Origin: Thermoanaerobaculia bacterium
Lineage (GTDB): Bacteria > Acidobacteriota > Thermoanaerobaculia > Thermoanaerobaculales > Sulfomarinibacteraceae
Direction of reading: 5' to 3'
NCBI GenBank assembly: GCA_027067575.1
Contig: JAMOVQ010000142.1
Coordinates: 7,127-71,126 of the forward strand
DNA: 64,000 nucleotides
The stretch's first letter is position 1, and each line of letters starts with the position of its first letter. The translations under genes were made by a program, and so were the position numbers. The notes under the pieces were generated by a model. The model made no database searches. It was not told the DNA's origin and saw nothing but the letters and a program-made list of their open reading frames with translations. Of the stretch, positions 9,236 to 64,000 are shown in pieces.

Positions 9236-10290
9236 ACAGCGACGAGCGCCTCGGCCACGCGGTCCCACGAGCAGGCTGCCACCCGAGCGCGGCCCGCGTC
9301 GCGGAGACGGCTCGCGAGCGCTTGATCGCTGACGATCCGGCGCACGGCCTCGGCCCACGCCGCCGGGGGGGCCGAGGCGGGGACGTAGAGTGCGGCGCCG
9401 CCCCCGGCCTCGGGGAGCGAGGAGCACGCCGTGACCACGGGGACCGCCCCGTGGGCCATCGCCTCGAGGACCGGCAGTCCGAACCCTTCCCACAGCGAGG
9501 GGAGCACGAGGACTTGCGCCGTCCCATACAGCCGCGCCAACGCCCCGTCGTCCACCGTTCCCGCCACACGGACCCGTTCCGGGCACCGCTCGGCAGCCTC
9601 ACGGATCGCAGGGTGCCCCGACGCGCCACCGGCCACCACGAGGGGCGGCAGGTCCCGCGCCCGGGACCCGCACCACAGACGGGCGAGCAGGTCCACGCGC
9701 TTGTGGGGATCCGGGCCACCCACGTAAAGGACGTGATCCCGGCGTTCGGCCGGCTCTCCCCCGGTGGGCGCCGCCACGCCGTTGGGGACGACGCGGACCC
9801 GGTCCGGCGGGATGCCGAGGCAGTGCACCGCGTCGTGGGCCGTGGACCTGGAGACGGCATGGACCAGCGTCGCCCGCCGGTACGTCTCCAGCCGCTGGAC
9901 CGCACGCCGCCGGACCCTCCCGCTGGGGATCGCGTCCGGATAACGGAGCGGGGTCACGTCGTGGAGCGTCGCCACCACCGGCAAGCCCAGCCCCGGCGGA
10001 ACCCCCCAGGCGGGGAGGTGGAGGACATCGACCGGGTGGCGATCGAGCACCCGCCGCCACACCGGCCGGTCGAACAGGAACGCCCCCCGCGGCGGGTGAG
10101 GAACCCGGACGATCCGCTCCTGGAGACCTTCGAGTGACGGGCCGAGCGGCGCGCCCCGCGGGACGAAGACCACGAGGTCAACGTCGGAGCGACCCGCGAA
10201 GGCGCACACGTGCTCCCGCGCGACCCGGCCAAGACCGCGGTCCGGATCGAGCACCGCCGCGCGGGCGTCGTAGCCGACCGTCAGCACCAT
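9202..10290 (-). CDS. Glycosyltransferase family 4 (GT-B, group 1)
   Basis: C-terminal LPSLWEGFGLPVLEAMAHGAVPVVT...E motif (EX7E-type) and an N-terminal Rossmann half. Convergent with the previous gene, with a 34-nt overlap. Confidence 0.8.
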   Translation of the reverse strand: MVLTVGYDARAAVLDPDRGLGRVAREHVCAFAGRSDVDLVVFVPRGAPLGPSLEGLQERIVRVPHPPRGAFLFDRPVWRRVLDRHPVDVLHLPAWGVPPGLGLPVVATLHDVTPLRYPDAIPSGRVRRRAVQRLETYRRATLVHAVSRSTAHDAVHCLGIPPDRVRVVPNGVAAPTGGEPAERRDHVLYVGGPDPHKRVDLLARLWCGSRARDLPPLVVAGGASGHPAIREAAERCPERVRVAGTVDDGALARLYGTAQVLVLPSLWEGFGLPVLEAMAHGAVPVVTACSSLPEAGGGAALYVPASAPPAAWAEAVRRIVSDQALASRLRDAGRARVAACSWDRVAEALVAVYREARILAPS

Positions 10291-14505: not shown

Positions 14506-14639
14506 TGTCCCCCTTCCACGGGCTGTGACTCCCCGACTATGCCCCACCCCGCCTCCCGGCCGCAACCCCGGCGGCGGCGAAACCCGGCCGGAAACGGAAA
14601 ACCCGCCGGCGGGACAGCGACCCCACCTCCTGCGCGACG

Positions 14640-14840
14640 GAGGCGAGCGAAGCGGCCCGCCGGAACCCCCCGGCAGGCGAGCGAAGCGACGCCGCTCCTC
14701 ACCGCCGGGGACAGACGAAGAATCAAACAGCGTCCCTTCCCCCGAGACGGGCAACGCGAGACTCGGCGTCGGCCCCCGAGAAGGCCAGGAAACAGACAGT
14801 GTCCCCTTCCCCCAAGGCGAGCGAAGCGACGCCGTCCCCC
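14640..14840. repeat. Intergenic modular repeats: GGCGAGCGAAGCG(A/G)C x3 and ACAG(C/T)GTCCC(C)TTCCCCC x2
   Basis: GGCGAGCGAAGCG occurs at 14642, 14676 and 14816; the last two are identical 18-mers 140 bp apart. ACAGCGTCCCTTCCCCC lies near 14727 and ACAGTGTCCCCTTCCCCC near 14796. The reverse complement of the latter shares GAAGGGGACACT with the 18.5-kb repeat. Confidence 0.6.
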
Positions 14841-14859
14841 GTCCCCCCCGCCCTCGGAA

Positions 14860-15040
14860 GATCCGGGGAGGCGGGGCGGGTTCGTCGCGAGGGGTCCGAG
14901 ACGGGGTGAGCCGTGGATGCACGCGCCGGGTGAGCGAGCGAGGCGTAGCCCGGCTACGCCGCAGCGAGCGAGCCCAAGCGGGCGCCGCGGATCGCCCCGT
15001 ATCGGACCCCGCAGCAGAACCCGCCCCGCCTCCCCGGATC
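14860..15040. repeat. 181-bp imperfect palindromic element with 24-bp perfect terminal inverted repeats (MITE/REP-like or long terminator hairpin)
   Basis: GATCCGGGGAGGCGGGGCGGGTTC (14860..14883) is the exact reverse complement of GAACCCGCCCCGCCTCCCCGGATC (15017..15040). The arms between them stay largely complementary (GGGGTCCGA-ACGGGG...). The centre is the hairpin GGCGTAG-cccgg-CTACGCC. The right arm overlaps the glnA stop codon (15039..15041). Confidence 0.6.
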
Positions 15041-16370
15041 AATAGCGATCGAGGTACCGCTCGCGCTCCCACGGGTGGATCACCTGGATGTACTCCGCCC
15101 ACTCCTTCCGCTTGTTGTAGAGGAAGTGCTGGAAGATGTGCTCGCCGAGCGCCTCGCGCAGCACGGCGTCCCGCTCCAGGAAATCCAGCGCCTCCGCGAG
15201 GTTGGCCGGGAGCTGCCGGATCCTCAGGCGGCGCTTCTCACGCTCGCTCATGGTGAAGATGTTCTTGTTCACCGGCTCGCCGCAGTCCATGCCGGCCTCG
15301 ATCCCGTCGAGGCCGGAGGCCATCATGACGGCCAGCGCCAGGTACGGGTTGCACGACGGGTCCGGGACGCGGACCTCGCACCGGGTCCCCTCGCCGCGCC
15401 GGGCCGGGACCCGGATCATCGGCGAGCGGTTCTTCTCGGACCAGGCGACGTTGACCGGCGCCTCGAAGCCGGGAACGAGCCGCTTGTACGAGTTGACGAG
15501 CGGGTTCGTGACGGCGACGAACGCCCGGGCGTGGGTCAGCAGGCCCCCGATGTAGTTGCGGGCGACCTTCGAGAGCTCCCATTCGCCGTCGGGGTCCCAG
15601 AACGCGTTCTCGCCGTCCAGGGTGAACAGCGACTGGTGGGTGTGCATCCCCGAGCCGTTCATCCCCGCCAGCGGCTTGGGCATGAAGGTGGCGTGGAGCC
15701 CGTGCATCAGCGCGACCTTCTTGACCACGAACCGGAACGTGACGATGTTGTCCGCCGTGGTCACGGCGTCGGCGTACTTGAAATCGATCTCGTGCTGGCC
15801 CGGCGCCACCTCGTGGTGCGCCGCCTCCACCTCGTACCCCATCGCCTCGAGCACCAGCGTGATGTCCCGCCGCGCTTCCTCGCCCTGGTCCCGCGGGCTG
15901 AGGTCGAAGTACCCGCCCGTGTCGTGGGTCTGGGGGATGGGCTCCCCCTCGCCGTTGCGCTGGAACAGGAAGAACTCGGCCTCCGGCCCGGCCATCATCC
16001 GGTACCCCATGGAACGGGCCCGCTCCACCACCCGCTTGAGCGCGGTCCGTGGGCAGCCCGGGAACGGCGTCCCGTCCGGGTTGGCGATGTCGCAGATCAG
16101 CCGCCCCACCCGGCCGTGCTCGGTCTCCCAAGGGAAGACGCCGAAGGTGTCGAGGTCGGGCACGAGCAGCATGTCCGACTCCTCGATCCGTGTGAACCCC
16201 TCGATGGACGAGCCATCGAACATGATCTGTCCGTCCAGCGCCTTCTCGAACTGGCTCCGGGGCACCTCGACGTTCTTGATGATCCCGTCGATGTCCGTGA
16301 ACTGCAGCCTGAGGAAATGGACCCGCTCCTCCTTGCAGCGGGCCAGGATGTCTGGGATGCGATGGGGCAT
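15039..16370 (-). CDS. glnA: Glutamine synthetase, type I
   Basis: MPHRIPDILARCKEERVHFLRLQFTDIDGIIKNVEVP...FDGSSIEGF...GPEAEFFLF...NGSGMHTHQSL...SYKRLVPGFEAP...NRSPMIRVP is a full-length GS-I signature. ATG 16370 lies 7 nt after AGGAGG; the track start 16376 is an upstream TTG. Confidence 0.95.
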   Translation of the reverse strand: MPHRIPDILARCKEERVHFLRLQFTDIDGIIKNVEVPRSQFEKALDGQIMFDGSSIEGFTRIEESDMLLVPDLDTFGVFPWETEHGRVGRLICDIANPDGTPFPGCPRTALKRVVERARSMGYRMMAGPEAEFFLFQRNGEGEPIPQTHDTGGYFDLSPRDQGEEARRDITLVLEAMGYEVEAAHHEVAPGQHEIDFKYADAVTTADNIVTFRFVVKKVALMHGLHATFMPKPLAGMNGSGMHTHQSLFTLDGENAFWDPDGEWELSKVARNYIGGLLTHARAFVAVTNPLVNSYKRLVPGFEAPVNVAWSEKNRSPMIRVPARRGEGTRCEVRVPDPSCNPYLALAVMMASGLDGIEAGMDCGEPVNKNIFTMSEREKRRLRIRQLPANLAEALDFLERDAVLREALGEHIFQHFLYNKRKEWAEYIQVIHPWERERYLDRY

Positions 16371-51407: not shown

Positions 51408-52187
51408 TCAGAACGTGTAGGTGCGGCCCTGGACGAGTTCCTCCACGGGGTGGGGGAAGGAGGTGTCCGCGATCTCCTCGCGGAGGCGGTCCACGTACGG
51501 GGGCTTGAAGTGGTAGAGGTAGACGGGCACCTCCCGGCGGAGCTTGGCGAGCTCGTTCCGGAGGAGGCGGGGCGTCAGGTGCCGGGCGACCCGGGCGATC
51601 GCCTCCTCCTCCGAGGGGAAGGAGCACTCGACGATCACGGCCCGGAGATCCCGAGCCCCGTTGGCGAGCTCCCAGATCCGGTCGGTGGGGCCGGTGTCCG
51701 AGGTGAAGACGATGGACGAGCCGCCCTGCCGCAGCAGGAACCCGACGGTGGGAACCACGTGGTCCACGGCGACGGGCGAGACCTCGAGGTCGCCGCCCTC
51801 GAGCCCTGTGACGACAAACGGCCGCTCCTCCTCGACCTCCTCGAACCGGACGATCGGGTAGAGGTGGTTCGGGATCCGGGTGAAGTCCGGCCATGTGTCG
51901 TTGTTGAACACCGCCCTCCGGAGCCTGCCGAGCACGGAGCCCGTGGAGTGGATCGTCACGGAGCTCTTGTGGGTCCCGAAGACGTTCTCGATCAGGAACG
52001 GCAGCGAGGAGGTGTGGTCCATGTGGGAGTGGGAGATCAGGACGTGCCGGATCCGCCGCTGCTCCTCGAGCGAGAGCGCCTGGGTCGTGGAGCCCGCATC
52101 CACCGCCACGACCCCGTCCACGAGGAACGACGTCATCCTGCAGTCGGGGGAGGAGCCGCCGAAGCTGCCGAGCACCGTGAGCTTCAC
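51408..52187 (-). CDS. MBL-fold metallo-hydrolase (class II 3',5'-cyclic-nucleotide phosphodiesterase-like)
   Basis: GTG start. LISHSHMDH metal-binding motif, further D and H residues (VAVDHV, FTSDTG, LYHF). 259 aa. Confidence 0.75.
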   Translation of the reverse strand: MKLTVLGSFGGSSPDCRMTSFLVDGVVAVDAGSTTQALSLEEQRRIRHVLISHSHMDHTSSLPFLIENVFGTHKSSVTIHSTGSVLGRLRRAVFNNDTWPDFTRIPNHLYPIVRFEEVEEERPFVVTGLEGGDLEVSPVAVDHVVPTVGFLLRQGGSSIVFTSDTGPTDRIWELANGARDLRAVIVECSFPSEEEAIARVARHLTPRLLRNELAKLRREVPVYLYHFKPPYVDRLREEIADTSFPHPVEELVQGRTYTF

Positions 52188-52236: not shown

Positions 52237-53286
52237 GTGGATCATCCCGGTGCGGATGCGCTCGAGCGGCTCGCCCTCGTGCTGGCCGGCGCCCCGGCCG
52301 CGGTGAGGCGTGCTCTGGCGGCGGTGGGCCCCGACCCGTCGCCGTTCGACCGGCTGGCCTCGGAGGGGTTCGCCGCCGTGGTCCGGGCGGCCCGGCCGTT
52401 GCTGCGCGCCGAGGTCCCGGCGGTGCTCGAGCGGGTCGGGGCGGCGGGCTGGCGGTGGGCCGTTCCGGGCACGCCCGGGTACCCGGCGGGCGTTTCGGCG
52501 CTTTCCGATCCCCCACTCGGGTTGTTCGTCCGTGGGACGGTCCCCGAGGCACCAGGGGCGGCGGTTGTGGGTTCCCGCCGGGCCACGCCGTACGGGCGCC
52601 AGGTCGGGCGGCTGCTCGGCGAGGCGCTCGCGGCGGCCGGGGTGCCCGTGGTGTCCGGGATGGCGCGAGGGGTGGACGCCGCGGCACACGAGGGCGCCCT
52701 GGCGGGGGGCGGCCCGACCGTGGCCGTCTGGGGCGCCGGGCCGGACCGCGTCTACCCGCCGGAGCACGGGCCGCTGGCGGAGGCGATCGTCGATGGCGGC
52801 GGGGCGCTGGTTACGGAGTTCCCGCCGGGGACCCCCCCGAGGCCGCACCACTTTCCCCGGAGGAACCGGATCATTGTCGGGCTCGCGCGGGCCGTCGTGG
52901 TGGTGGAGGCCCGCGCCCGGTCCGGCGCGCTCAACACGGCCCGCCAGGCGCTGGACGAGGGCCGGGAGGTCTGGGCCGTGCCGGGTAGCATCCTGTCGGA
53001 GCTCTCCGTCGGGCCCAACGCCCTGATCCGGATGGGGGCCCGTCCGCTCCTCGTGCCAGACGAGCTCATCCGGGAGCTCGGGAGGCGGCCCGCCGTACCG
53101 GAGGGCGCCGGGGCGGACCCGCCGTCGCCGGTGCTCGACGCCATCCCCTCCGGGCGGTCGCTGCCCCCGGACGCCATCGCTGCCGCGGCCGGGCTGCCCG
53201 TCGGGGAGGTGCTGACGGCGCTGCTGACCCTCGAGCTCGAGGGCCGGGTCGAGCGCCTGCCCGACGGCAGCTACGCCCGCCGCTGA
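52237..53286 (+). CDS. dprA: DNA-processing protein DprA (Smf)
   Basis: PPLGLFVRG...AVVGSRRATPYGRQV...VVSGMARGVDAAAHEGAL...TVAVWGAGPDRVYPPEH...FPRRNRIIVGLARAVVVVEA...SGALNTA, with a C-terminal winged-helix-like region. Confidence 0.88.
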   Translation: MDHPGADALERLALVLAGAPAAVRRALAAVGPDPSPFDRLASEGFAAVVRAARPLLRAEVPAVLERVGAAGWRWAVPGTPGYPAGVSALSDPPLGLFVRGTVPEAPGAAVVGSRRATPYGRQVGRLLGEALAAAGVPVVSGMARGVDAAAHEGALAGGGPTVAVWGAGPDRVYPPEHGPLAEAIVDGGGALVTEFPPGTPPRPHHFPRRNRIIVGLARAVVVVEARARSGALNTARQALDEGREVWAVPGSILSELSVGPNALIRMGARPLLVPDELIRELGRRPAVPEGAGADPPSPVLDAIPSGRSLPPDAIAAAAGLPVGEVLTALLTLELEGRVERLPDGSYARR

Positions 53287-53337
53287 CCCTGCCGCGGCGG
53301 TTGTGCTAGGGTGAGCCGCCTGAGTGGAGGGAATGGG

Positions 53338-55617
53338 ATGGCGCGAAAGCTCGTGATCGTGGAGTCTCCGGCGAAGGCCCGGACCATCGGGAAGTTCCTA
53401 GGCAAGGAGTTCTCGGTCAAGGCCTCGGTGGGGCACATCCGGGACCTGCCGAAGAGCTCCCTCGGGGTGGACGAGGCCCACGGGTACGAGCCCGAGTACG
53501 TCGTGCTCCCCGAGAAGAAGAAGGTCGTGGAGGAGCTTCGGAAGGCGGCGAGGTCGGCGGAGGAGGTCTACATCGCCACCGACCCGGACCGCGAGGGCGA
53601 GGCGATCTGCTGGCACGTCCAGGAGGTGCTCCGGAGCACGAAGAAGCCGTTCCACCGCGTGGAGTTCCACGAGATCACGAAGCGGGCGGTGCGCCAGGCG
53701 ATGGAGAGCCCGCGCCAGGTGGACATGAACCGCGTCAACGCCCAGCAGGCCCGCCGGGTCATCGACCGGCTGATGGGGTACCGGATCTCCCCGCTCCTGT
53801 GGGAGAAGGTCAAGCGGGGGCTCTCCGCCGGCCGCGTCCAGTCGGTGGCGCTCAAGATGATCTGCGACCGCGAGGCGGAGATCGAGGCGTTCGTCCCCGA
53901 GGAGTACTGGATCGTGGACGCGAAGGTCCGCGCCGCCGCGCCGCCGCCGTTCGCCCTCAGGCTGGCGAAGCGCGACGGGAAGAAGTGGCGCCCGGGCAAC
54001 GCCGAGGAGGCCGAGGCCGTGGCCGCGGCGATCCGGAACGCAGAGCTGGCCGTGACGCGGGCCACCCGGAAGACGAGCCGGCAGAAACCGAAACCGCCGT
54101 TCATCACCTCCCACCTGCAGCAGGAGGCGTCCCGCCGGCTCCGGATGCCCGTCCGCAAGACGATGCAGGTCGCCCAGCGGCTGTACGAGGGCGTCGACCT
54201 CGGCGGCCGCGGCACCGTGGGCCTGATCACCTACATGCGGACCGACTCGTTCCGGGTCGCCGACGAGGCGCTCGACGCCGCCCGCGCCCTGATCGCCCGG
54301 CAGTGGGGCGAGACGGCGCTGCCGGCGAAGCCCAACCGGTACCGGTCCAGGGCCTCGGCGCAGGACGCCCACGAGGCGATCCGGCCGACGGACCCCACCC
54401 TGACCCCGGACGACGTGGCGCCGTACCTCTCCTCCGACCAGCTCCGGCTCTACCGGCTGATCTGGGAGCGGTTCATCGCCTCCCAGATGACCCCCGCCGT
54501 GTTCGACGTCACCCAGCTCGAGGTCCAGGTCGGGCCGTACACCCTGGCCGCCACCGGCAAGGTGCTCCGGGACCCCGGGTTCCTCCGGGTCTGGAAGGAC
54601 GCGAAGGAGGGCGACGGTGAGGGCGCGCTGCCCGCCGGGCTCGAGGGGGGAACGCCCCTCGAGCTGGAGAAGGTCGAGCTCGAGCAGAAGTTCACCCAGC
54701 CCCCGGCGCGGTACAACGAGGCGTCGCTCGTCAAGGCGCTGGAGGAGAACGGGATCGGCCGGCCCTCGACCTACGCCAGCATCATCGCAACCCTCTCCAG
54801 CCGGGACTACGTGGTCCGGGAGAAGGGGACGTTCCGGCCCACGGCGCTGGGACGCCTGGTGGCCCGGCTCCTGGTCGGCTCCTTCGCCGACATCGTCAAC
54901 GAGCGGTACACGGCGAGCCTGGAGGAGCAGCTCGACCGGGTCGCCGCGGGCGAGGAGGACTGGCGCGCGACGGTTCAGCGGTTCGCGGAGGAGCTGGGGC
55001 GGGACCTGGAGCGTGCGAAGAAGGAGATGGAGCAGGTCAAGGGGAAGGGGATCCCCACCGACGAGACCTGCCCCGAGTGCGGCGCGCCCCTCGTGATGAA
55101 GTTCGGCCGGTACGGCGAGTTCCTCGCCTGCTCCCGGTACCCCGACTGCCGGTACACCCGGGACGTGGGCGAGAAGGAGGGGGCGGACGAGGCCGGGGAG
55201 GCGGAGGGAGCCGAGGCGCCGGCCTGCCCCGAGTGCGAGGCGCCGATGGTCCAGAAACGGTCGCGGTTCGGCCTGTTCTGGGCGTGCAGCCGGTACCCGG
55301 AGTGCAAGGGGACCCGCCCCATCGGGAAGAAGGCGCTGCCGAAGCCCGAGCCCACCGGTGTCTCCTGCCCCATGGAGGGGTGCGGCGGGGAGCTGATGGC
55401 GAAGAAGTCGCGGCGGGGCACGACGTTCTACGCCTGCAACCGGTACCCGAAGTGCACCTTCGCCATGCCGAACCCGCCCGTGCCGACACCGTGCCCGGAG
55501 TGCGGCTTCCCCGTCATGGGGCTCAAGGTGACCAAGCGGCGCGGCCGTGAGCTCGTCTGCCCGGTCAAGACGTGCGGGCACCGGATGCCCGCGCCGGAGG
55601 AGCCGTCGGAGGGGTGA
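53338..55617 (+). CDS. topA: DNA topoisomerase I (type IA) with four C-terminal zinc ribbons
   Basis: ATG 53338 lies 8 nt after GGAGG. MARKLVIVESPAKARTIGKFLG (Toprim), IATDPDREGEAI and the active-site region ITYMRTDS. C4 motifs: CPECGAP...CSRYPDC, CPECEAP...CSRYPEC, CPMEGCGG...CNRYPKC and CPECGFP...CPVKTC. Confidence 0.95.
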   Translation: MARKLVIVESPAKARTIGKFLGKEFSVKASVGHIRDLPKSSLGVDEAHGYEPEYVVLPEKKKVVEELRKAARSAEEVYIATDPDREGEAICWHVQEVLRSTKKPFHRVEFHEITKRAVRQAMESPRQVDMNRVNAQQARRVIDRLMGYRISPLLWEKVKRGLSAGRVQSVALKMICDREAEIEAFVPEEYWIVDAKVRAAAPPPFALRLAKRDGKKWRPGNAEEAEAVAAAIRNAELAVTRATRKTSRQKPKPPFITSHLQQEASRRLRMPVRKTMQVAQRLYEGVDLGGRGTVGLITYMRTDSFRVADEALDAARALIARQWGETALPAKPNRYRSRASAQDAHEAIRPTDPTLTPDDVAPYLSSDQLRLYRLIWERFIASQMTPAVFDVTQLEVQVGPYTLAATGKVLRDPGFLRVWKDAKEGDGEGALPAGLEGGTPLELEKVELEQKFTQPPARYNEASLVKALEENGIGRPSTYASIIATLSSRDYVVREKGTFRPTALGRLVARLLVGSFADIVNERYTASLEEQLDRVAAGEEDWRATVQRFAEELGRDLERAKKEMEQVKGKGIPTDETCPECGAPLVMKFGRYGEFLACSRYPDCRYTRDVGEKEGADEAGEAEGAEAPACPECEAPMVQKRSRFGLFWACSRYPECKGTRPIGKKALPKPEPTGVSCPMEGCGGELMAKKSRRGTTFYACNRYPKCTFAMPNPPVPTPCPECGFPVMGLKVTKRRGRELVCPVKTCGHRMPAPEEPSEG

Positions 55618-56945
55618 CGGCGCCGGTGCTCGTGGTCGGGGGCGGCCTCGCCGGCTCCGAGGCCGCGTGGCAGCTCGCGGAGGCGGGCATCCCGGTCCGG
55701 CTCGTGGAGATGCGGCCCGTCCGCACCACCCCCGTCCACCCCGGGGACCGCCTCGCCGAGCTCGTCTGCTCCAACTCGCTCCGCGGCGACAGCCCCACCA
55801 ACGCCGTGGGCTTGCTCAAGCGGGAGATGGAGGCGCTCGACTCGCTGATCGTCCGGTGCGCCCGGGCCACGGCCGTTCCCGCGGGCGGGGCGCTCGCGGT
55901 GGACCGCGGCCGGTTCGCCGGACTCGTCACCCGCACGCTGGAGGAGCACCCGCTCGTCACCGTGGAGCGCGCCGAGGTGACGGCGCTGCCCGAGGGGCCC
56001 GCCATCGTCGCCACCGGGCCGCTGACCTCCGAGGCGCTCCACCGTTCGCTCGAGGCGGTGCTCGGGGAGGGGTCGCTGGCGTTCTACGACGCCGTGGCGC
56101 CCATCGTCGCCGCCGACTCGCTGGACATGGACCGGCTGTTCGCCGCCTCCCGGTACGGCAGGGGCGACGCGGACTACCTCAACGCGCCGCTGGACCGCGA
56201 GGCGTACGAGCGGTTCGTCGCCGCCCTGCTCGGCGCCGGGCAGGTCCCGCTCCGGGAGTTCGAGGCCGACGCCGTCTTCTTCGAGGGGTGCCTCCCCATC
56301 GAGGAGATGGCGCGCCGCGGCCCGGACACCCTGCGGTACGGCCCGATGAAGCCCGTTGGGCTCGTGGACCCGAGGACGGGGCAGCGGCCGTGGGCCGTGG
56401 TCCAGCTCCGGCAGGACGACCTGGCGGCGGAGCACTGGAACCTCGTGGGGTTCCAGACGCGGATGCGCCAGGGTGAGCAGCGGAGGGTGTTCCGGATGAT
56501 CCCGGGCCTGGAGAACGCCCGGTTCGTGCGGTACGGGATGATCCACCGCAACACCTACGTCAACGCCCCCGCCCACCTGGACGCCGGCCTCCGGCTCCGG
56601 GCCCGTCCGGCCGTGCGGCTCGCCGGGCAGATGACCGGGGTGGAGGGGTACGTGGAGTCGGCGGCCACCGGGCTGCTCGCGGGCCGGTTCCTGGCCGCGG
56701 AGCTGGCCGGCCGTCCCCTGTCCCCACCGCCCCGGACCACCGCCCTCGGCGGCCTGGTCCGCCACCTGACCGAACGGCCCGCGTCGCGGTTCGAGCCGTC
56801 CAACGTCACGTGGGGGCTCATCGCCTGCCCGCCGGAGCTGCGGACCGTCCGGCCCAAGGCCGCGCGGCGCGAGGCGATGGCGGCGGCGGCCGTCGAGGCC
56901 GTCCGGCGCTGGGCCCTGGGCGCTACAGCCTCCTCCGGCCGCTGA
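55614..56945 (+). CDS. trmFO: Methylenetetrahydrofolate--tRNA-(uracil54-C5)-methyltransferase TrmFO
   Basis: GTG 55614 overlaps the topA stop (GTGA). VLVVGGGLAGSEAAWQLA, LVCSNSLR, GCLPIEEMARRGPDTLRYGPMKP, AGQMTGVEGYVESAATG. 443 aa. Confidence 0.92.
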   Translation: MTAPVLVVGGGLAGSEAAWQLAEAGIPVRLVEMRPVRTTPVHPGDRLAELVCSNSLRGDSPTNAVGLLKREMEALDSLIVRCARATAVPAGGALAVDRGRFAGLVTRTLEEHPLVTVERAEVTALPEGPAIVATGPLTSEALHRSLEAVLGEGSLAFYDAVAPIVAADSLDMDRLFAASRYGRGDADYLNAPLDREAYERFVAALLGAGQVPLREFEADAVFFEGCLPIEEMARRGPDTLRYGPMKPVGLVDPRTGQRPWAVVQLRQDDLAAEHWNLVGFQTRMRQGEQRRVFRMIPGLENARFVRYGMIHRNTYVNAPAHLDAGLRLRARPAVRLAGQMTGVEGYVESAATGLLAGRFLAAELAGRPLSPPPRTTALGGLVRHLTERPASRFEPSNVTWGLIACPPELRTVRPKAARREAMAAAAVEAVRRWALGATASSGR

Positions 56946-57123
56946 CGGACCCCCGGAGCGGCGTTCGGCGGACGCGAACCGGCGCTCTCCGGCGGGGCCG
57001 TCCGGGACATGAATGGACCCGGGGCCGGGATTGTCGCGTTCGGACACGATCCTGTCGCTCTTTACCATGGATGGACGCTCCTCCGGGGTGGATACTGTCG
57101 ACAGAAAAGGAAGGAGCAGGACG

Positions 57124-59109
57124 ATGGGAAACATGCGAGGCGTGTGCGCGATGGTCGTCGGGATCGTGGTCGGGCTCTCCGTCGCTGCCGGAGCCCTGGC
57201 GTCCTTCCCCGGGACGGACGTCTTCGTCCCCTCGGTGGGGCATGGGGCGGGCTCGGGCGGGTCCCAGTGGCGGACGACGCTCTGGATCTTCAATCCCGGT
57301 GAGGCCGGGGCCAACTGCCGGATCGAGCTTCTGATGCGTGGGGGGAGCAACCCAGAGCCGGCCGGGGCCTTCAACCTCACCGTGGGGCCGGGCGACACCG
57401 TCCGGTTCGACGACGCGGTGTGGGCGCTGTTCGGGGTCGAGGGGTACGGCGCGCTCCGGGTGACCTCCAGCGCCGAGGTCGTGGTCAACTCCCGGATCTT
57501 CAACCAGGAAGGGGACGATATCGCGGATACCCAGGGCCAGTTCTTCCCGGCGATCCCTGCCGGTTTCTCCATTGGGCCGGGGGAGACCACGGACATCCTG
57601 GGAGTCGACCAGGCGGGCGATGGAGCCTTCCGGTACAACTTCGGGATCGTGGAGACCTCTGGCCACGACATCGTCGTGGAGGCGACCCTGCTCGACGGCG
57701 AGGGCAACGCGCTGGGCGGCAAGGCGTACACCCTGGGGCCGTTCGGGGTCATGCAGGTCAACGTCTCGGACCTCGGGACCGGAACCCATCCGACGGCGAA
57801 CGGCCGGATCCACGTCTTCCTCCGTCCCGAGAGCGAGGGCTCGGCCATCGTCTTCGGTTCCGGGATCGCCAACGCCTCCCAGGATCCATCGACCTTCGAG
57901 ATGACCATGGATGCCACCGGTGGCGGGACGGGTGGCGACCTGTCGTTGCCCTACCGGGGAACGGGCAGCTCCTCCGGCTCCCTGTTCGCGGTGGAGAACA
58001 CGGGCTCCGGCACGGCGGTCGAGGGCCGGTCGGACGGCGGCACCGGGGTCCTGGCCGACACGGATTCCGGCAGCGCGGTTCGAGCCAGGGCGTCGTCGAC
58101 CTCGGGAGCGGCGATCCAGGCCGAGAACACCGCCCGCGGAATCTCCGTCGCCATCGCGGCCGAGCGCGGCGTCGACGTCGAGTGCTCGGAGTGTACGGCG
58201 GTCAAGGGCGTGTCGGAGATCGCCCTCGGGGGGTTCTTCTCGAGCACCAACGGCAAGGGGCTGCGCGTCAGCAGCACAAACAACATCGGGATCGACGTCA
58301 GCAGCACCAGCAACACCGGGATCGACGCCACGGTGTCCGGCGGGAATCCCGCCGTTCTCGGGAAGAACCTTGGAGACGGCGCGGCCGCTTCGTTCTACGC
58401 CGCGGACTACTACGCCGTGTTCGCCAGGTCGGACTCGGCGTACGAGCCGGCGGTCGAGGGCCGGGGGTTTGTTGGAGGGGTCTACGGTAAGGCGTATGAG
58501 GAGGGCTGTGCCGGGGTGCTGGGCCTCAACGAGTACGATGGAGGGTACGGAATCTGGGGTTACGCGGGAATCAGATCCCTGGCGGGGCACTTCACGGGGG
58601 ACGTGGAGGTCTTCGGATCGCTGACCAAGAGCAGCGGATCGTTCAAGATCGACCACCCGCTGGATCCGGAGCACAAGTACCTCTACCACTCGTTCGTCGA
58701 GTCCCCCGACATGATGAACATCTACAACGGCAATGTTGTGACGGACGCGTCCGGTTACGCGACGGTCACCCTGCCGGACTGGTTCGAGGCGCTCAACCGG
58801 GATTTCCGGTACCAGCTGACCGTGATCGGCGGGGGCGACCAGTGGGCGCTGGCGCGGGTTGCCCGGAAGATCGAGGACAACACCTTCGTCATCCAGACCA
58901 GCGCGCCGTACGTCGAGGTCTCCTGGCAGGTGACGGGGATCCGCCACGACCCGTGGGCGGAGGCCCACCGGATCCCGGTCGAGGAGGAGAAACCCGAGGC
59001 GGAGCAGGACCACTACATCCACCCCGAGCTCTACGGCGCCACGGTCCGGGAGAGCGTCGAGGCCGGGCGGAATCCGGCGTTCATGGAACGGATCCTGCAA
59101 GATCGGTAG
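57124..59109 (+). CDS. Secreted protein: signal peptide, shared ~230-aa domain (N-terminal), Gly/Ser-rich beta-helix-like repeats, conserved C-terminal domain
   Basis: ATG 57124 behind GGAAGGAG. Signal peptide MGNMRGVCAMVVGIVVGLSVAAGALA. Residues 31-260 (57214..57903) are homologous to 17009..17695. The middle has short repeats (GTAVEGRSDGGTGVLADTDSGSAVRA..., VSSTNNIGIDVSSTSNTGIDA). The C-terminal region reads GSFKIDHPLDPEHKYLYHSFVESPDMMNIYNG...DFRYQLTVIG...VSWQVTGIRHD. Confidence 0.65.
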   Translation: MGNMRGVCAMVVGIVVGLSVAAGALASFPGTDVFVPSVGHGAGSGGSQWRTTLWIFNPGEAGANCRIELLMRGGSNPEPAGAFNLTVGPGDTVRFDDAVWALFGVEGYGALRVTSSAEVVVNSRIFNQEGDDIADTQGQFFPAIPAGFSIGPGETTDILGVDQAGDGAFRYNFGIVETSGHDIVVEATLLDGEGNALGGKAYTLGPFGVMQVNVSDLGTGTHPTANGRIHVFLRPESEGSAIVFGSGIANASQDPSTFEMTMDATGGGTGGDLSLPYRGTGSSSGSLFAVENTGSGTAVEGRSDGGTGVLADTDSGSAVRARASSTSGAAIQAENTARGISVAIAAERGVDVECSECTAVKGVSEIALGGFFSSTNGKGLRVSSTNNIGIDVSSTSNTGIDATVSGGNPAVLGKNLGDGAAASFYAADYYAVFARSDSAYEPAVEGRGFVGGVYGKAYEEGCAGVLGLNEYDGGYGIWGYAGIRSLAGHFTGDVEVFGSLTKSSGSFKIDHPLDPEHKYLYHSFVESPDMMNIYNGNVVTDASGYATVTLPDWFEALNRDFRYQLTVIGGGDQWALARVARKIEDNTFVIQTSAPYVEVSWQVTGIRHDPWAEAHRIPVEEEKPEAEQDHYIHPELYGATVRESVEAGRNPAFMERILQDR

Positions 59110-59209
59110 GTGCGGCACCGGCAGGGAGGGGGGTGTGCCGGGGACCCTTGGCGGGCCCGGGGGGCGGTGGTAGAGTTCCGGCGCACACTTCATCGAAGGG
59201 GGGATCACC

Positions 59210-60610
59210 ATGTACCGCAACCGCTCCGTCCGTCCGTTCGCGCACGCCGTGTCGGGGCCGCTCGCGGTGGCTGCCCTGGCGCTGTCGTTCCTGGCGCTGG
59301 CCGGCGCCCCGCCCGCCTCGGCCGAGACGTTCACCGTCGATGCCATCAGGTCGGAGTTCGGCTCCATCGACTTGGGCCTCGGCGAGACGTCGTTCTGCTG
59401 GTACTTCGGCGAGAACATCGCCAGGGACGGGACCGAAGTTCTGGCGGCGGGGTTCGACCTGTCGTTCCTGCCGCCCGGGACCGTCGTCAACGGCGCGACG
59501 CTGTCCATCATCCTCACCAACGGAAACGGGAACCCGACGTCGCTCGGCGCGCTGGAGGCCGCGGTGCTGCGCCCGTTCTCCATCTCGGCCCCGGGCGCCC
59601 CGTACGTGGAGCCCCGGTGGGCCACGGCCGAGGCCTGGCCCGCCGTGACGCTGGCCGACCCCGTCCCCGCCGGAGGGGGGACGTTCTCCGGCGACATCAC
59701 GGACGCCGTCCGCCAGTGGTTGGGGGCGGACCACGAGGGCGACCCCGGCCGGCTGATCGTCCGGTTCTGGCTCGACGGCGCCCCGAACGGCGACGATGCC
59801 CTGGACCGGTGGCGGACCCACTTCCCGCCGCGGCTCCGGCTCGACGTGACGCTCCCCGACCCCATCGCCAGCCGGCCCGTCGACCGGCACGAGATCCACG
59901 TGCTCCCCGTGGCCGCGTCCAACGACGGGCTCGCCGGGACGCGGTGGGTCACCGAGCTCTCCCTCCGGAGCACGGTGCTCGACCACCCGATCGCCGTCTG
60001 GCTCTACTACACGCCCTCGGGCGTCTCCGGTATGGACACCTTCCAGGTCCGGCGGATCGACCTCGCCCCGGAGACGACGCGCACCTTCGATGACCTGCTG
60101 CCGGAGCTGTTCGGCGTCGGAGGCCAGAAGGGGTGGGTCGAGCTGTTCTTCTCGAGTCCCGGTGTGGAGGCCGTGGGCCGAATCGCCAACGTTGGCGGCG
60201 AGGGGACCTACGGGCAGACCGTCGGGCTCCAGGGCTGGGAGACGGCCGCCTCGACCCTGGGATGCGGGTACCGTACCTCGGTCTACCGGACCATCCCCGG
60301 CGTCCGGCTGGACGCCGCCAGCCGGAACAACCTCGGGTTCGTCAACGTGACGCCCATCCCCGCCACGGTGCGCGTGGAGATCCGCCGCCCGGACGGGAGC
60401 ACATCCGTGTCGCTCGACGTCCCGGTCCCGCCCATGGGGCACGTCCAGCTCCGCAGGCTGACCGACCTCGCACCGGAGCTCGCCGGCTACGGCGCCACCG
60501 CCGTCTCCTTCCACCCGGACTGGCCCGACTCCGGTGACGTCACCGTCTTCGGCTACCTCTCCCGCGTGGACGAGACCACCGGCGACGCCGTCTTCGTCCC
60601 GGGGCGGTGA
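59210..60610 (+). CDS. Secreted protein: signal peptide, unassigned N-terminal domain, shared ~230-aa domain (C-terminal)
   Basis: ATG 59210 behind GAAGGGGGG. Signal peptide with an ASA|ET cleavage site. The C-terminal 239 aa (59891..60607) is homologous to 12031..12717 (LPVAAS..GLAGTRWVTEL...GTYGQT...NNLGFVN...SRVDETTGDAVFVP). Confidence 0.6.
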   Translation: MYRNRSVRPFAHAVSGPLAVAALALSFLALAGAPPASAETFTVDAIRSEFGSIDLGLGETSFCWYFGENIARDGTEVLAAGFDLSFLPPGTVVNGATLSIILTNGNGNPTSLGALEAAVLRPFSISAPGAPYVEPRWATAEAWPAVTLADPVPAGGGTFSGDITDAVRQWLGADHEGDPGRLIVRFWLDGAPNGDDALDRWRTHFPPRLRLDVTLPDPIASRPVDRHEIHVLPVAASNDGLAGTRWVTELSLRSTVLDHPIAVWLYYTPSGVSGMDTFQVRRIDLAPETTRTFDDLLPELFGVGGQKGWVELFFSSPGVEAVGRIANVGGEGTYGQTVGLQGWETAASTLGCGYRTSVYRTIPGVRLDAASRNNLGFVNVTPIPATVRVEIRRPDGSTSVSLDVPVPPMGHVQLRRLTDLAPELAGYGATAVSFHPDWPDSGDVTVFGYLSRVDETTGDAVFVPGR

Positions 60611-60856
60611 GGGGGGGCTTTCGAGACCGGAGCGGCTCCGGCGCTCGAACCATCCGCCTGCCGGTGTGACCGGCACGGGATCCGGCACCCCGGTGATCCC
60701 GGACGGCCGCCGGCGGGCACCCGGCGGGGGGAGCCCTCGTGTGAGAGGGTGCCTGGGAGGCGAAACGGCGCCGGTCCAGGCCCGCGGCTGCCGTGCGGAT
60801 CCCCTCGCGAGGCCCTGGGCCGCCGGTGTTCGACGGCCGACACCGCGGAGGCGCCG

Positions 60857-61135
60857 TTACCGGCGGTACACCGACCGCCGATGGGCCACGCGCAGGACCG
60901 TCACGAGGATCCGCTCACCGTCGAAGCCGTAGATCACGCGGTAGCTTCCCACCCGGAGGCGCCGGAGCCCCCTCCACTCCCCGGACAGGACCGAACCGGC
61001 CAGCGGGTCGGCCCGAAGCCCCTCCACCGCGGCGACGACCCGTTCCCGTGCCCTCCGCGGAAGGGCCCGGAGCTCCTTGACGGCACGCCGTTCCCACAGG
61101 ATCTCCGGCGGGTGGGACGGACCATCCGCTCTCAC
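60857..61135 (-). CDS. Type II toxin, RelE/ParE family
   Basis: GTG 61135 overlaps the antitoxin stop (GTGA). ILWERRAVKELRALPRRARERVVAAVEGLRADP...LRRLRVGSYRVIYGFDGERILVTVLRVAHRRSVY is the typical RelE/ParE pattern. 92 aa. Confidence 0.8.
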   Translation of the reverse strand: MRADGPSHPPEILWERRAVKELRALPRRARERVVAAVEGLRADPLAGSVLSGEWRGLRRLRVGSYRVIYGFDGERILVTVLRVAHRRSVYRR

Positions 61136-61350
61136 TCGAGCCCCAAGTCGTCCTTGACCTGCTCGTGGTCCACCCACTCCGCGCCGGGATCGCGAAGGCG
61201 AGCCAGGGCGATCTCCAGATCGTCCCGCTCGGCCAGGTAGAGCTCCAGCGCCTCGACGATGAACGAGCTCTTCGACCGCCGGGTCTCCCGGGCGAGCGCC
61301 TCCAGCCTCTCGGCGATCTCCTCCGGCAACCGGATCGACTGAACGGCCAT
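61132..61350 (-). CDS. Type II antitoxin, ribbon-helix-helix (CopG/RelB-like)
   Basis: ATG 61350 directly behind AGGAGG. MAVQSIRLPEEIAERLEALARETRRSKSSFIVEALELYL is an RHH fold signature. 72 aa, upstream of the toxin. Confidence 0.8.
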   Translation of the reverse strand: MAVQSIRLPEEIAERLEALARETRRSKSSFIVEALELYLAERDDLEIALARLRDPGAEWVDHEQVKDDLGLE

Positions 61351-61620
61351 GTCACCTCCTGTAATGAATGTACTCCATCGACGACAACCCACCAACCCAT
61401 GCCGCCCCACGCTGTGGCAGAATGGCTCCACGTCCACACCACGAACCCGTTCACGCGGAGGACGAGGAGGTGCACGAGGCATGAGCAAACGGAGCCAGAA
61501 GCCGTCACCGGAGGGCGTGGCCAGGGCGATCCTTCCCCTGGCCGGGCTGCGGCCGGTGTTGTCCTCCCCGTTCGTTCCTCTCTCGCTCTGCACCGTATCC
61601 GTCTCACCGGGAGCTCAAGG

Positions 61621-64000
61621 ATGAGCGGTTTCGAAGTAATCGTCGCAAAGTGGATCGTTGACAAGCTTGCCGACGAAGCCTGGCAGTTGATGAAGGAAGT
61701 CTTCCAGACGGCAAGGAAGGCGGTTCGTGAGAAGGAGAAGGCAGAGGAGCGCGGGGAGAAGCTCGCGGCGGTGCTCGAGGAGGCTCTGGAAGACGCGGAG
61801 AAGGCGATGGGTAAGAAGCGTTCACTTCTTCCAACGAATCTTGCGCTTCGTGTCCGGGAGTACCTTCTGACCTGCGTCCTGTTGGACAGCGGTAAGAAAG
61901 TATCGGCTGCCGCAACCCCTGGGGTCGGCAAGGCGAAGGCATCCGAGTTATTGCAACCGCTCCGTGACCTGTTCAACGTCGCTGCCGATGCCGATGTGGC
62001 GCATCGCTGGGCGGACGCCTACACCAAGTTTGTCATGGTCACGGGAATCGAGCCTGCGGACATGCGTTCCGAGGTGAGGCCCGCCCTCGAGCTCTATTTC
62101 CTCGAGCTATCCCGCTGCGTTCAGGACGGGTTGCTCCGGGCGTTCGGCCAAGAGATGACCCCCGCGGCTCTCGAGCGGATCAAGGTTGCTCAGGAGGATA
62201 CCGTCGCGGCGATCGACCGCTTGGGCACCTCGTTGACGGAAACCCTGGAAACCGTTGTCAGGCAGGCGACGGACGCCATGGTCACCGCCCTGAAGGCGAG
62301 CGACGATTCGCAGGAAACGGTTCTCGGATCGGTGATCGAGGATCCCGACGAGCTCAGGGAGCAATCACGGTGCTATGCCGCGCTTCTGCTCGGTCGGGAG
62401 GGATCACCGATCGAACGCCCGTTGCACAGGAGGATCCGCGAAGTCCTCGGTGGGTTCGGCGTCACGTTCCCCCACGTTGGTCAGCTGTACGTGGTCTCTT
62501 CCGTGGAGCGGCTCGAACGGGGACGACCGGCGGGTGACGAGAGCGTCGAAGGCACGCTCCCGAGGCTCGAATCGTCCACCCCCGGAGAGCCGACGGCTCC
62601 CGAGACCGTGCCAGGTCTGTGGTCCTTCCTCGGACACCGCTGCGTTGCCGTGACCGGGGCGCCGGGTTCCGGCAAGACCATGGAGCTGTGTGCGCTGGGC
62701 CGCTCGCTGGCCTCGAAGCTCGAGGATGGCACGGGCTGGCTGGTACCGCTCTACATCCGGCTCTCGCCACGATCGGGGTCCCTCAAGTCGGAGATGCAGA
62801 AGGCCTCCCACGGGTACGGCAACCTCGTGGCCTCTGCGCTGGCCGGCCGTGAGGGCATGAGTCTCCTCCTGCTCCTCGACGGTTTCGACGAGGCCGGGAA
62901 AGAGGTCGGCCGGAGCATTCTCGAATCGCTGGCTCGACTGCTCGCATCCTGCCCGCGGACGGCGGCCGTCCTTGCGGGGCGCCACCAGTGCGCGCCGCTC
63001 TGGAGGGATCTCGGTCCCCGGCTCGGGCCGGTGCTCGAGCTGCAACCGTTCGACTCCGGCCAGCAGGTGGCGCTCGTCCGGCAGTTGTGTGCCGCTGTCG
63101 ATCCGGAGAGGTGCCGGCGCAATCAAGAAGAGGTCCGGCAGGCAGTCGAGTCCGTGATCCACGGGGGCCGGTTCCTCCTCGGAACGGCGGAGCTGTCCAC
63201 GTTCCTCAGGACGCCGTTGTACCTGACCCTCTACGTGGCCGTGGCCCTCCTCGAGGACGACGAGCCCCCGGTCACGCTCGCGGAGCTGATGCGCCGGTTC
63301 GTCCACAGGATCGTCCGTGCGGCGATGACGGCGCGGGAAATCGAACATCCGGATGAGATGGCGAGGGTGTTTCTGGAGGTCGTGGAAGCACTGTCTGGAG
63401 AGGGCTCGTGGCTGAGCGGAGGGGTGCTGAAGGAGATTGACAGACTGGACGTTGCACGGCTCGCCCGCGAGAACATGCGCTTTCGCACGGCAGCACGCTT
63501 GGAGCACGAAGATCCGGAACCCCTTGCCGCCGGCCTCATGGTGGCCAGCGGCCTGTTCGAGGGAAAGGGGACCGAGGGGGAAGGTCCGTGGACCTTCTCG
63601 CTCTACCCGTTCCAGGAGTACTTCGCCACGCGAGGGCTGCTACGGGTGGTCAAGAGCAAAGGTGGGGATAGGGCCGAAGCTCTTCTCGACGGACTTTCCC
63701 ATGCCGTCTGGAGCGCGGACCTGCCGCGTCACCTGGCCTCCTTGGTGGTCAGCGACATGGATCTTGGCCTCGCCTCCTCCGATCGACGGCAACTGATCCA
63801 GGGGCTCGTCAGACACCTGTCCGTCACGGTGCAACACGGCCCGGGGCAAGCCGTTTCGCCGGATCTCAACCTGTTCCTCGCTCTCCGCGATTCCATCGTG
63901 GCCATCGATTCCGACCTGGAAAGGTGGGCCGAGGATCGGGCGGAAGGTTTCCTCGAGAAATATGCAAATGACCCTGTCGTCAGGCAGTTCGAGGACAACG
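61621..64000 (+). CDS. NACHT/STAND NTPase with unassigned ~340-aa helical N-terminal domain (3' end beyond the window)
   Basis: Not in the ORF track because there is no stop before 64000. ATG 61621, and I saw no in-frame stop over at least 793 codons. Walker A VAVTGAPGSGKT (62656..62679), Walker B LLLLLDGFDEAG (about 62861..62892), then RTAAVLAGRHQ and LELQPFDSGQQVALVRQL as in NACHT modules. The first ~500 nt have visibly lower GC (31 of the first 60 nt are G/C). Confidence 0.8.
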   Translation, partial: MSGFEVIVAKWIVDKLADEAWQLMKEVFQTARKAVREKEKAEERGEKLAAVLEEALEDAEKAMGKKRSLLPTNLALRVREYLLTCVLLDSGKKVSAAATPGVGKAKASELLQPLRDLFNVAADADVAHRWADAYTKFVMVTGIEPADMRSEVRPALELYFLELSRCVQDGLLRAFGQEMTPAALERIKVAQEDTVAAIDRLGTSLTETLETVVRQATDAMVTALKASDDSQETVLGSVIEDPDELREQSRCYAALLLGREGSPIERPLHRRIREVLGGFGVTFPHVGQLYVVSSVERLERGRPAGDESVEGTLPRLESSTPGEPTAPETVPGLWSFLGHRCVAVTGAPGSGKTMELCALGRSLASKLEDGTGWLVPLYIRLSPRSGSLKSEMQKASHGYGNLVASALAGREGMSLLLLLDGFDEAGKEVGRSILESLARLLASCPRTAAVLAGRHQCAPLWRDLGPRLGPVLELQPFDSGQQVALVRQLCAAVDPERCRRNQEEVRQAVESVIHGGRFLLGTAELSTFLRTPLYLTLYVAVALLEDDEPPVTLAELMRRFVHRIVRAAMTAREIEHPDEMARVFLEVVEALSGEGSWLSGGVLKEIDRLDVARLARENMRFRTAARLEHEDPEPLAAGLMVASGLFEGKGTEGEGPWTFSLYPFQEYFATRGLLRVVKSKGGDRAEALLDGLSHAVWSADLPRHLASLVVSDMDLGLASSDRRQLIQGLVRHLSVTVQHGPGQAVSPDLNLFLALRDSIVAIDSDLERWAEDRAEGFLEKYANDPVVRQFEDN

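Follow-up and report, generated by a model that had tools for sequence, protein, structure and literature searches.

The combination of a central STAND NTPase with a C-terminal C-type-lectin (CLec) domain has already been described computationally in bacteria. For bacterial NACHT proteins, Kibby et al. (bioRxiv 10.1101/2022.07.19.500537) list two 'antigen receptor-type' sensors, one of which is the FGS C terminus, 'in several cases likely' diversified by a diversity-generating retroelement (DGR) through its reverse transcriptase (RT). A link between FGS domains in conflict systems and DGRs was drawn by Kaur et al. 2020 (PMC7159879), and Doré et al. (PNAS 2024, PMC10907252) described DGRs of clade 5D with two targets that combine a central NACHT, nSTAND1 or KAP NTPase with a single CLec domain, many of them with uncharacterized N-terminal extensions. 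The latter authors also reported degenerate loci without machinery and diversification in trans, and a 2026 survey includes FGE-sulfatase-like sensors among prokaryotic STANDs. Here we compare with these systems a NACHT gene that begins at position 61621 of a 64,000-nucleotide stretch of DNA (the window) from a Thermoanaerobaculia bacterium (contig JAMOVQ010000142.1, positions 7,127 to 71,126) and runs off its end.

We consider it likely that this gene specifies a three-part NLR-like protein of 1143 residues, a NACHT-CLec sensor of the DGR-target type whose local retroelement has decayed. The parts are a helical N-terminal module (about residues 1–335), a NACHT STAND NTPase (residues 340 to about 780) and a linker followed by the CLec domain (residues 893–1138). 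Because of its C-terminal CLec domain and the occurrence of its family in DGR cassettes, the gene falls into the described category of FGS-type antigen-receptor NACHTs and STAND-CLec DGR targets. Specific to it are a near-orphan N-terminal family, a stump of the retroelement gene avd and an exchange of CLec modules between two alleles. The original prediction, made from the window alone, had set against its own proposal a known effector at the N terminus of a gene from a described NACHT clade; the gene does belong to a described class, but its N terminus matches no known effector. Within the window it comprises the following features, where P0001 denotes the full-length protein.

61621..64000, + strand: 5′ 2,380 nucleotides of the NACHT-CLec gene, residues 1–793 of 1143; open frame, identical to P0001; the full gene would end at window-equivalent 65052.
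61621..62310, + strand: near-orphan all-helical N-terminal module, residues 1–230, putative effector or adaptor (exhaustive phmmer; AlphaFold2 (AF2) model).
62311..62637, + strand: pre-NACHT linker, residues 231–339 (alignment of three family members; low model confidence).
62638..63087, + strand: NACHT NTPase domain, residues 340–489 (PF05729; Walker A and DGFDE).
63088..63969, + strand: helical and winged-helix part of the STAND module, residues 490–783 (order of elements in the AF2 model, low confidence; Foldseek matches to NLRs).
63970..64000, + strand: start (DPVVRQFEDN...) of the C-terminal linker and FGE-sulfatase/CLec module, which paralogous DGR targets also have.

The frame from 61621 remains open through 64000 (793 codons), with no stop before the window end. 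Its length alone is no evidence for coding, because antisense open reading frames (ORFs) of 829 and 1016 residues (55428–57917 and 56923–59973, minus strand) also occur in this 70% GC window; like a third of 727 residues (53398–55581, minus strand), they overlap real genes and are artefacts of the base composition. The NACHT gene does have the codon-position pattern of coding sequence, with GC contents of 0.78, 0.70 and 0.45 at third (GC3), first and second positions, respectively. A search of 5.8 billion proteins with the window fragment gave two matches only. One, P0001 (1143 residues, on a contig of 96,395 bp), covers 100% of the fragment at 100% identity and is the window's own protein in full; the other, P0002, has 1191 residues and is 46% identical to the window protein.

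The Pfam NACHT model PF05729 matches residues 340–489 of the window fragment at 33.3 bits and full-length P0001 at 32.1 bits, both above the gathering cutoff of 26.7. The Walker A motif GAPGSGKT, which fits GxxxxGK[ST], lies at residues 346–353 (62656–62679) and the sequence LLLLLDGFDE at residues 415–424 (62863–62892). The final DGFDE (residues 420–424, 62878–62892) satisfies the D[GAS]hDE signature after Walker B that, in the available text of Kibby et al. (bioRxiv 10.1101/2022.07.19.500537), defines NACHT against other STAND NTPases; VLAGRHQ (residues 450–456) and LELQPFD (residues 472–478) follow. An AlphaFold model of residues 330–793 has low confidence, with a mean predicted local distance difference test (pLDDT) score of 54, but places a P-loop core, a helical domain and helices with a β-hairpin in succession, the layout of NACHT NLRs, in which a helical domain and a winged helix follow the NTPase core. 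When this model was compared with the PDB using Foldseek, the best 17 matches were NLRC4, NAIP5 and NLRP7/9/14 (E values of 8e-8 to 2e-5, 435–503 aligned columns, template modelling (TM) score of about 0.24), with Cdc6/ORC proteins ranking after them. The window gene is a genuine NLR-like NACHT/STAND NTPase, and the truncated NACHT protein of the original prediction, with the motifs that it had listed, is confirmed.

The sensor lies outside the window, as had been foreseen. Residues 893–1138 of P0001 match the FGE-sulfatase family (PF03781, E=1.3e-38), as does the C terminus of P0002, and in both known alleles of the gene (P0001 and P0003, discussed below) the CLec domain is detected at E=1e-35 to 1e-38. 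FGE-sulfatase domains have the CLec fold, a scaffold hypermutated by DGRs (Kaur et al. 2020, PMC7159879; Doré et al. 2024, PMC10907252). The best PDB sequence matches of the P0001 domain are CalU17, PorK/GldK, SUMF2 and FGE. In formylglycine-generating enzyme (FGE), the two catalytic cysteines sit in the stretch that corresponds to the segment between 'GGS' and 'VRCA' of P0001. That segment contains no cysteine in P0001, and the domain is therefore read as a probable binding module rather than an enzyme. The equivalent of the DGR variable repeat (VR) occupies residues 1104–1141 (window-equivalent 64930–65043), the last approximately 38 residues of the domain.

Residues 781–1143 of P0001 are 52–56% identical to both targets of the DGR at the P0002 locus (L001); the N-terminal and NACHT part of the other L001 target, a paralog, has no significant match in the window. 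For the C-terminal module as a whole, identity falls from 56 and 52% with the L001 targets to 51% with L024, 42% with L026, 35% with L027 and about 30% with generic metagenomic FGE proteins; its similarity to proven DGR targets roughly tracks the relatedness of their RTs. A metagenome scan returned only such generic FGE-sulfatase proteins at about 30% identity, without RT or Avd, and a viral scan was empty. Scans of genome contigs with a peptide and with an exact 60-mer likewise had no match, and neither P0001 and P0125 nor the 106-residue ParE ORF is recorded as an exact product.

It is the N-terminal module that sets the family apart. An exhaustive phmmer search with the N-terminal 335 residues against 1.84 billion representative proteins returned only P0001, P0002 and a third protein, P0124 (29% identical). 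The earlier remark that some 340 residues precede the core without a recognized motif holds, inasmuch as the N-terminal ~335 residues have no match in Pfam, PHROGs, PADLOC or NCBIfam, or by sequence (phmmer) in the PDB. An AF2 model from the three-sequence alignment is all-α, with pLDDT of 70–89 for about residues 40–220 and below 50 from residue 228; the helical character that had been proposed for the whole region thus stands for about residues 1–227, whereas residues 228–335 are modelled with low confidence. Foldseek searches with the model gave a best PDB match at E=1 with a TM score below 0.25 and no match in BFVD. Two motifs of the pre-NACHT linker, IEDPxEL (62335–62355) and LHRRIREV (62422–62445), are retained in all three family members. 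We also considered whether the module might be of the coiled-coil NLR (Rx_N/MADA-like), HeLo or Death-like kind, its first helix and a stretch 'LEDAEK' being reminiscent of coiled-coil NLR N termini; permissive Pfam searches with the three homologs, phmmer against the PDB and Foldseek against the PDB and BFVD gave this no support. Judged solely by where it lies in the three-part plan of NLRs, and by analogy, the module would be an effector or adaptor.

The association with retroelements comes from the relatives. At L001 the order is NACHT-FGE paralog, bAvd, RT, template repeat (TR) and P0002, and a 113-nucleotide repeat is present three times: at 8085–8197 and 13421–13533, the 3′ end of each target, and at 9708–9820, directly after the RT. 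Where the two target copies depart from the post-RT copy in the alignment, the latter has AAC codons, and nearly every mismatch is of the A-to-N kind; because the mismatches are adenine-specific with respect to the post-RT copy, we identify the repeats as a DGR TR and its two VRs. The P0124 locus (L030) is arranged similarly, as a target of the N-terminal family, bAvd, RT, TR and a KAP-NTPase-FGE target, with the TR at 6099–6211, VRs at 4481–4593 and 9553–9665, and 37 of 39 mismatches at TR adenines. Both other carriers of the N-terminal module, P0002 and P0124, are proven DGR targets and, with the Avd stump found in the window's lineage, all three carriers are either DGR targets or lie in DGR cassettes. 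Sister DGRs, whose RTs are 65–77% identical to that of L001, have KAP-NTPase-FGE or DUF4062-NACHT-FGE proteins as targets, and adenine-specific TR/VR pairs are also present in L026 and L027. L001 and L030 have the layout in which a STAND or KAP NTPase with a single CLec domain stands on either side of Avd-RT-TR, and L026 gives signs of it; in the window's lineage only the first target and an Avd stump are seen.

Several further features of these cassettes deserve mention. In L030 (2380–2500), and likewise in L031 and L032, an in-frame TAG interrupts the target between Walker A and Walker B (...FAREL*DAVGRHGDLIASALAGRAGMSLVILLDGLDEAG). The three assemblies are independent and give the same 398-residue product, a tblastn alignment continues past the stop without a change of frame, and of the non-adenine sites of the TR only one is not matched by the VR of the interrupted target; this may be a pseudogene, a gene split in two or one whose stop is read through. 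The L001 cassette is flanked by a gene for a patatin-like phospholipase (3724–4536, minus strand; E=2.7e-11 against the PADLOC 'Effector/Phospholipase' models) and by XhoI/Eco57I-type restriction-modification genes (13698–16276, minus strand), a setting that resembles a defence island; the patatin might serve the STAND-CLec sensors there as a separate effector. In L027, a 124-nucleotide direct repeat (1854–1977 and 10906–11029, 99% identical) brackets the entire block of DUF4062-NACHT-FGE target, Avd, RT and GIY-YIG gene, and may mark the boundaries of a mobile unit carrying the DGR cassette. In L026, approximately 70 nucleotides that follow the VR are duplicated upstream of Avd (1–70 and 5029–5098, 96% identical), and L001 has the same duplication (8068–8262 and 13404–13598, 92%); within this DGR clade, each copy of a target carries the post-VR segment along with it.

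At the window's own locus the DGR looks degenerate, to judge from its sequence. No RT or Avd is encoded within the 64-kb window. In a second strain (contig L022, from ENA) the nucleotides right after the gene stop encode PPVAVQKCYDLVLYLLQRIEK, the N terminus of bAvd, and the post-stop product MKEEEGGMTRGDRGAPKPPASPTAPPVAVQKCYDLVLYLLQRIEK matches the bAvd N termini of L001, L024 and L026. The frame departs from Avd after 'QRIEK' and then stops (...LLAADRAARRR*). A probe with the Avd fragment returned a single protein, P0125 (49 residues), on the 96,395-bp contig of P0001, with the junction ...QRIEKLLAADRAARRR. Because the same junction is present in L022 and P0125, the break is real and common to two strains. 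What the locus holds in place of an intact RT and Avd is a stump of 49–56 residues, against 108–153 in intact Avd. A continuation of Avd in another frame was considered, since a collinear 'DVLEN' match hints at a deletion of about 23 nucleotides with frameshift rather than clean loss, but this match is not significant (E=0.18). L022 does retain the 3′ end of the VR, which may correspond to an initiation of mutagenic homing site (...GTTTCCGCTGTTTCCGGGATGT), and, in the alignment, a pyrimidine-rich segment common to the VR flanks of L001 and L026. Just after the gene stop it also has a perfect 10-bp inverted repeat (13467–13476 and 13497–13506, CTTCCTCCTT and AAGGAGGAAG, with a 20-nucleotide loop). 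This was rejected as a conserved post-VR hairpin, as it overlaps the Avd ribosome-binding site, its 3′ arm being the Shine-Dalgarno-like sequence, and by eye is not conserved in L001.

P0005 and P0006 (77% identical to the L001 RT) and P0017 (with the same four source tags) were examined as RTs of the window's lineage and discarded: their loci L024–L026 share only short nucleotide segments of 69–96% identity with the tail of L022, L027–L029 share none, and the targets are different. Since Avd is broken and no RT was found at the locus, any current diversification would need a DGR acting in trans.

In place of DNA of the P0001 VR or a TR from the window's lineage, we used a proxy that tests, for each of 38 VR residues, whether changing only the adenines of the aligned sister-TR codon could yield that residue. 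Proven VRs have 1 of 38 residues unreachable from their own TR and 5 from a heterologous sister TR. The P0001 VR has 5 unreachable from the L030 TR and 7 from the L001 TR, with 23–24 identical and 8–9 reachable, which supports, rather than proves, the view that it was written by a DGR. The P0003 VR, with 16 of 38 unreachable from the same TRs, suggests decay or a different template.

A number of these results weigh against a DGR-type sensor. The Avd frame is broken, leaving an ORF of 49 residues; no RT lies on the contig of P0001 among the best 120 relatives of the L001 RT, and the sequences found included neither a TR nor an RT of the window's lineage. The VR of P0003 fits sister TRs poorly, and the NACHT-region model has low confidence. 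No PADLOC-DB 2.0 family matched the window fragment (E<=0.1) or P0001, P0002 and the L001 paralog (E<=0.01). Finally, the available portions of the papers that describe the STAND-CLec class (Kibby et al., Kaur et al. and Doré et al.) give no experiment on such a protein.

Two other histories would account for the broken cassette. The gene may be a remote target that is still diversified in trans by an intact DGR elsewhere in the genome, the Avd stump being the scar of a cassette duplication. This we regard as possible, if on the doubtful side: degenerate loci and remote targets diversified in trans have been reported in Thiohalocapsa (Doré et al., PMC10907252), the P0001 VR is as compatible with a TR as proven VRs, the VR 3′ end and pyrimidine-rich segment are conserved with active loci and the 1143-residue ORF is intact, but the RT relatives that carry matching source tags belong to other lineages and the VR of P0003 has diverged strongly from sister TRs. 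Alternatively, the whole locus may be a relic in which the retroelement is dead, the sensor is fixed or degenerating and the gene is turning into a pseudogene, as might be argued from an Avd broken at the same point in two strains, the failure to find an RT, a P0003 VR off the templated pattern and the TAG codon of L030 in three assemblies. Intact ORFs of 1143–1149 residues in both alleles, zero differences in their first 2,694 nucleotides, unbroken NACHT motifs and CLec domains recognized at E=1e-35 to 1e-38 make such general decay unlikely, and we retain the reading of an intact NACHT-CLec sensor beside a decayed retroelement.

The two alleles offer a second view of how the sensor varies. 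L022 differs from the window by 24 mismatches over 12,380 nucleotides, none of them in 59727–64000, and carries the whole of allele P0003 (1149 residues) with 256 nucleotides downstream. The first 898 residues of P0001 and P0003 are identical, as are the first 2,694 nucleotides of the gene; beyond this point, identity drops to 58.5% over the CLec domain and 28% in the VR block. Between the two strains, the Avd stumps have 6 differences within the first 19 residues and none thereafter. The divergent tract thus spans about 1 kb, taking in the CLec domain, the VR and the 5′ end of Avd, and both of its edges lie in sequence conserved among paralogous DGR targets. We read the difference as replacement of a sensor cassette by recombination. 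Elsewhere along the overlap, 21 of the 24 differences fall in two patches, 51796–51822 in a metallo-β-lactamase (MBL)-fold gene and 52311–52446 in the 5′ part of dprA, with 3 single-nucleotide polymorphisms in the other ~11.5 kb; the patches look like a small recombination import.

A jump of the assembler between paralogous CLec modules would produce a similar picture without any true allelic exchange. DGR cassettes in this clade have a pair of targets whose CLec modules are similar, and the assembly graph branches at the breakpoint: a Logan contig (L023), 100% identical to the window over 52447–64000 and extending 314 nucleotides further, ends exactly there, at codon 898. Both alleles are nevertheless followed by the same unusual junction, 'QRIEK|LLAADRAARRR*', which argues for a single locus, and the duplicated segment after the second target of L001 is much shorter, stopping short of that part of Avd. 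We therefore consider a chimera improbable and keep to the replacement of the cassette.

By what steps might such a protein act? The RT of a DGR would copy the TR with errors at adenines and write the copy into the VR, altering the surface through which the CLec domain binds its ligand. To judge from NLRs, Avs and bNACHT proteins, ligand binding by this domain would release the NACHT module for NTP binding and oligomerization, which would in turn gather the N-terminal helical modules to act as effectors or to recruit one. An immune role is likewise suggested by analogy. Recognition of kin and non-kin, or signalling, is the other function to be weighed, with the lectin face reading a self or environmental ligand in het-like allorecognition or 'regulatory pathway tuning'. 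Doré et al. (PMC10907252) raise kin recognition as an alternative, Vallota-Eastman et al., in the part available, propose regulatory roles for cyanobacterial DGR targets, and the presence of two strongly dissimilar CLec alleles on backgrounds that are otherwise the same is reminiscent of an allorecognition polymorphism. The location of relatives beside restriction-modification genes and a patatin phospholipase that matches a PADLOC effector model leans instead toward defence, and we hold a non-antiviral role to be of low probability.

The closest described counterparts are the STAND-CLec proteins of Thiohalocapsa PB-PSB1 DGR 3 and clade 5D (PMC10907252), which share the central NACHT/STAND module, the single C-terminal CLec domain with a VR and an uncharacterized N-terminal extension. 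The two-target cassettes (target-Avd-RT-TR-target) of L001 and L030 and the KAP-NTPase variants in L024, L026 and L030 also recall these loci. Unlike them, the window gene has a distinct, near-orphan N-terminal family with three carriers and a local DGR reduced to an Avd stump, and the likeness drawn here is one of architecture. Its resemblance to the FGS-type NACHTs of Kibby et al. is likewise architectural; in the accessible part of that study, the bNACHT proteins tested carry leucine-rich repeat (LRR), HEAT, transmembrane or short C-terminal domains, none of them of FGS type.

With the validated Avs and bNACHT anti-phage STANDs, the protein has in common the logic of N-terminal effector, STAND NTPase and C-terminal sensor, but P0001 has no PADLOC match, its sensor has a lectin fold rather than TPR-like repeats and its N terminus is no recognizable nuclease, protease, TIR or Sir2 domain. 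The FGE-sulfatase/CLec scaffold with a VR at the extreme C terminus is that of Mtd of Bordetella phage and TvpA of Treponema denticola (Kaur et al., PMC7159879), and the AAC-rich TRs and adenine-specific substitutions of such DGR systems are found in relatives of P0001. Mtd and TvpA serve in surface or tail-fibre binding, whereas P0001 is fused to a signalling NTPase of intracellular type, has no signal peptide or transmembrane segment by eye and has no PDB sequence match to TvpA or Mtd. The animal NACHT NLRs (NLRC4, NAIP5 and NLRP7/9/14) are the best structural matches, albeit through a low-confidence model and at a TM score of about 0.24; they are 12–17% identical to it and have LRR sensors and CARD, PYD or BIR effectors.

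Among bacterial proteins, DGR-diversified NLR-like proteins come closest to an antigen receptor that varies somatically and is linked to a cell-fate switch. The locus described here provides a compact, intact example, and its output module, seemingly exclusive to such sensors, is a candidate for learning what triggered receptors do. The two alleles, with identical N-terminal and NACHT parts and very different lectin sensors, form a natural comparison that could map ligand specificity. The module has so far been found only on DGR-linked NACHT-CLec proteins (all three carriers). We put forward, as speculation with the odds against it, the joint proposal that the helical module is a new class of effector or adaptor dedicated to hypermutable NLR-like sensors and that the locus shows a second, recombinational layer of sensor diversification, in which a cassette of about 1 kb, reaching from the CLec domain through the VR into the 5′ part of Avd, is replaced between strains with nucleotide-identical flanks, even after decay of the local retroelement.

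Composition and surroundings bear on whether the gene was acquired. The first 60 nucleotides contain 31 G/C, as originally noted, and GC3 of the NACHT gene is 0.78 against 0.85–0.975 in eight neighbouring genes. The claim of an atypical patch is weaker for overall GC content, which is 0.646 in the gene and 0.626 in its N-terminal part against 0.702 in the window (z of about −1.7 to −1.9, with 4–7% of equal-sized windows equally low). P0002 behaves likewise in its own host, with a GC3 of 0.77 against 0.88–0.92 for host genes and a similar value in the adjacent restriction-modification genes; the lower GC3 of both fits accessory or mobile status. Scans for tRNAs, promoters and terminators near the locus gave nothing. 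Upstream lies the toxin-antitoxin pair that had been noticed beside the gene, confirmed by domain matches with gene calls transferred from L022.

60857–61135, minus strand: ParE/RelE-family toxin (Pfam ParE_toxin, E=2.7e-12; TIGR02385 RelE_StbE).
61132–61350, minus strand: RHH (RelB/CopG-like) antitoxin (RHH_1, E=6.6e-9; NCBIfam RelB-like, E=8.8e-13).

The two genes overlap by 4 nucleotides and have the features of a type II RelE/ParE-RHH pair, although the RelB-like match, at 48.3 bits, is just below the model cutoff of 50. The pair is not constant among the loci of the family: L030 has a BrnT/CopG pair, unrelated to ParE/RHH and about 6 kb downstream of the N-terminal-family target, and none lies beside P0002 in L001. 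Because its type is not conserved, the pair is taken to be an incidental neighbour and is probably not part of the NACHT-CLec system.

The original prediction had favoured an acquired defence gene, and one could suppose a stand-alone anti-phage gene of bNACHT or Avs type, with a fixed germline sensor and an N-terminal effector, that arrived with the toxin-antitoxin module and owes nothing to a retroelement. The NACHT core, the GC3 below that of the neighbours, the pair alongside and the lack of intact DGR machinery at the locus would all suit such a gene. The sensor has a CLec/FGE fold, however, all three family members are in DGR cassettes, an Avd stump directly follows the gene, the P0001 VR fits adenine-only change of sister TRs, no PADLOC model matches and the toxin-antitoxin type varies by locus, so that this origin seems very unlikely. 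Acquisition as such remains plausible from the low GC3, with synteny compared among near-identical strains; of the rest of that claim, the neighbouring pair is not conserved, the PADLOC check that had been proposed gave no matching defence model and the retroelement link had been missed. A STAND gene truncated at the edge of a window can hide such a link. We prefer the DGR-type NACHT-CLec sensor.

Two large proteins of 661 and 466 residues, encoded between trmFO and the toxin-antitoxin pair (57124–59109 and 59210–60610), have no Pfam match; their GC3 values of 0.90 and 0.955 suggest that they are native to the host. Where the overlap with L022 begins, a partial MBL-fold gene (51621–52187, minus strand) has precomputed Pfam matches to Anti-Pycsar_Apyc1, Lactamase_B and PDEase_II and probably encodes a housekeeping hydrolase.

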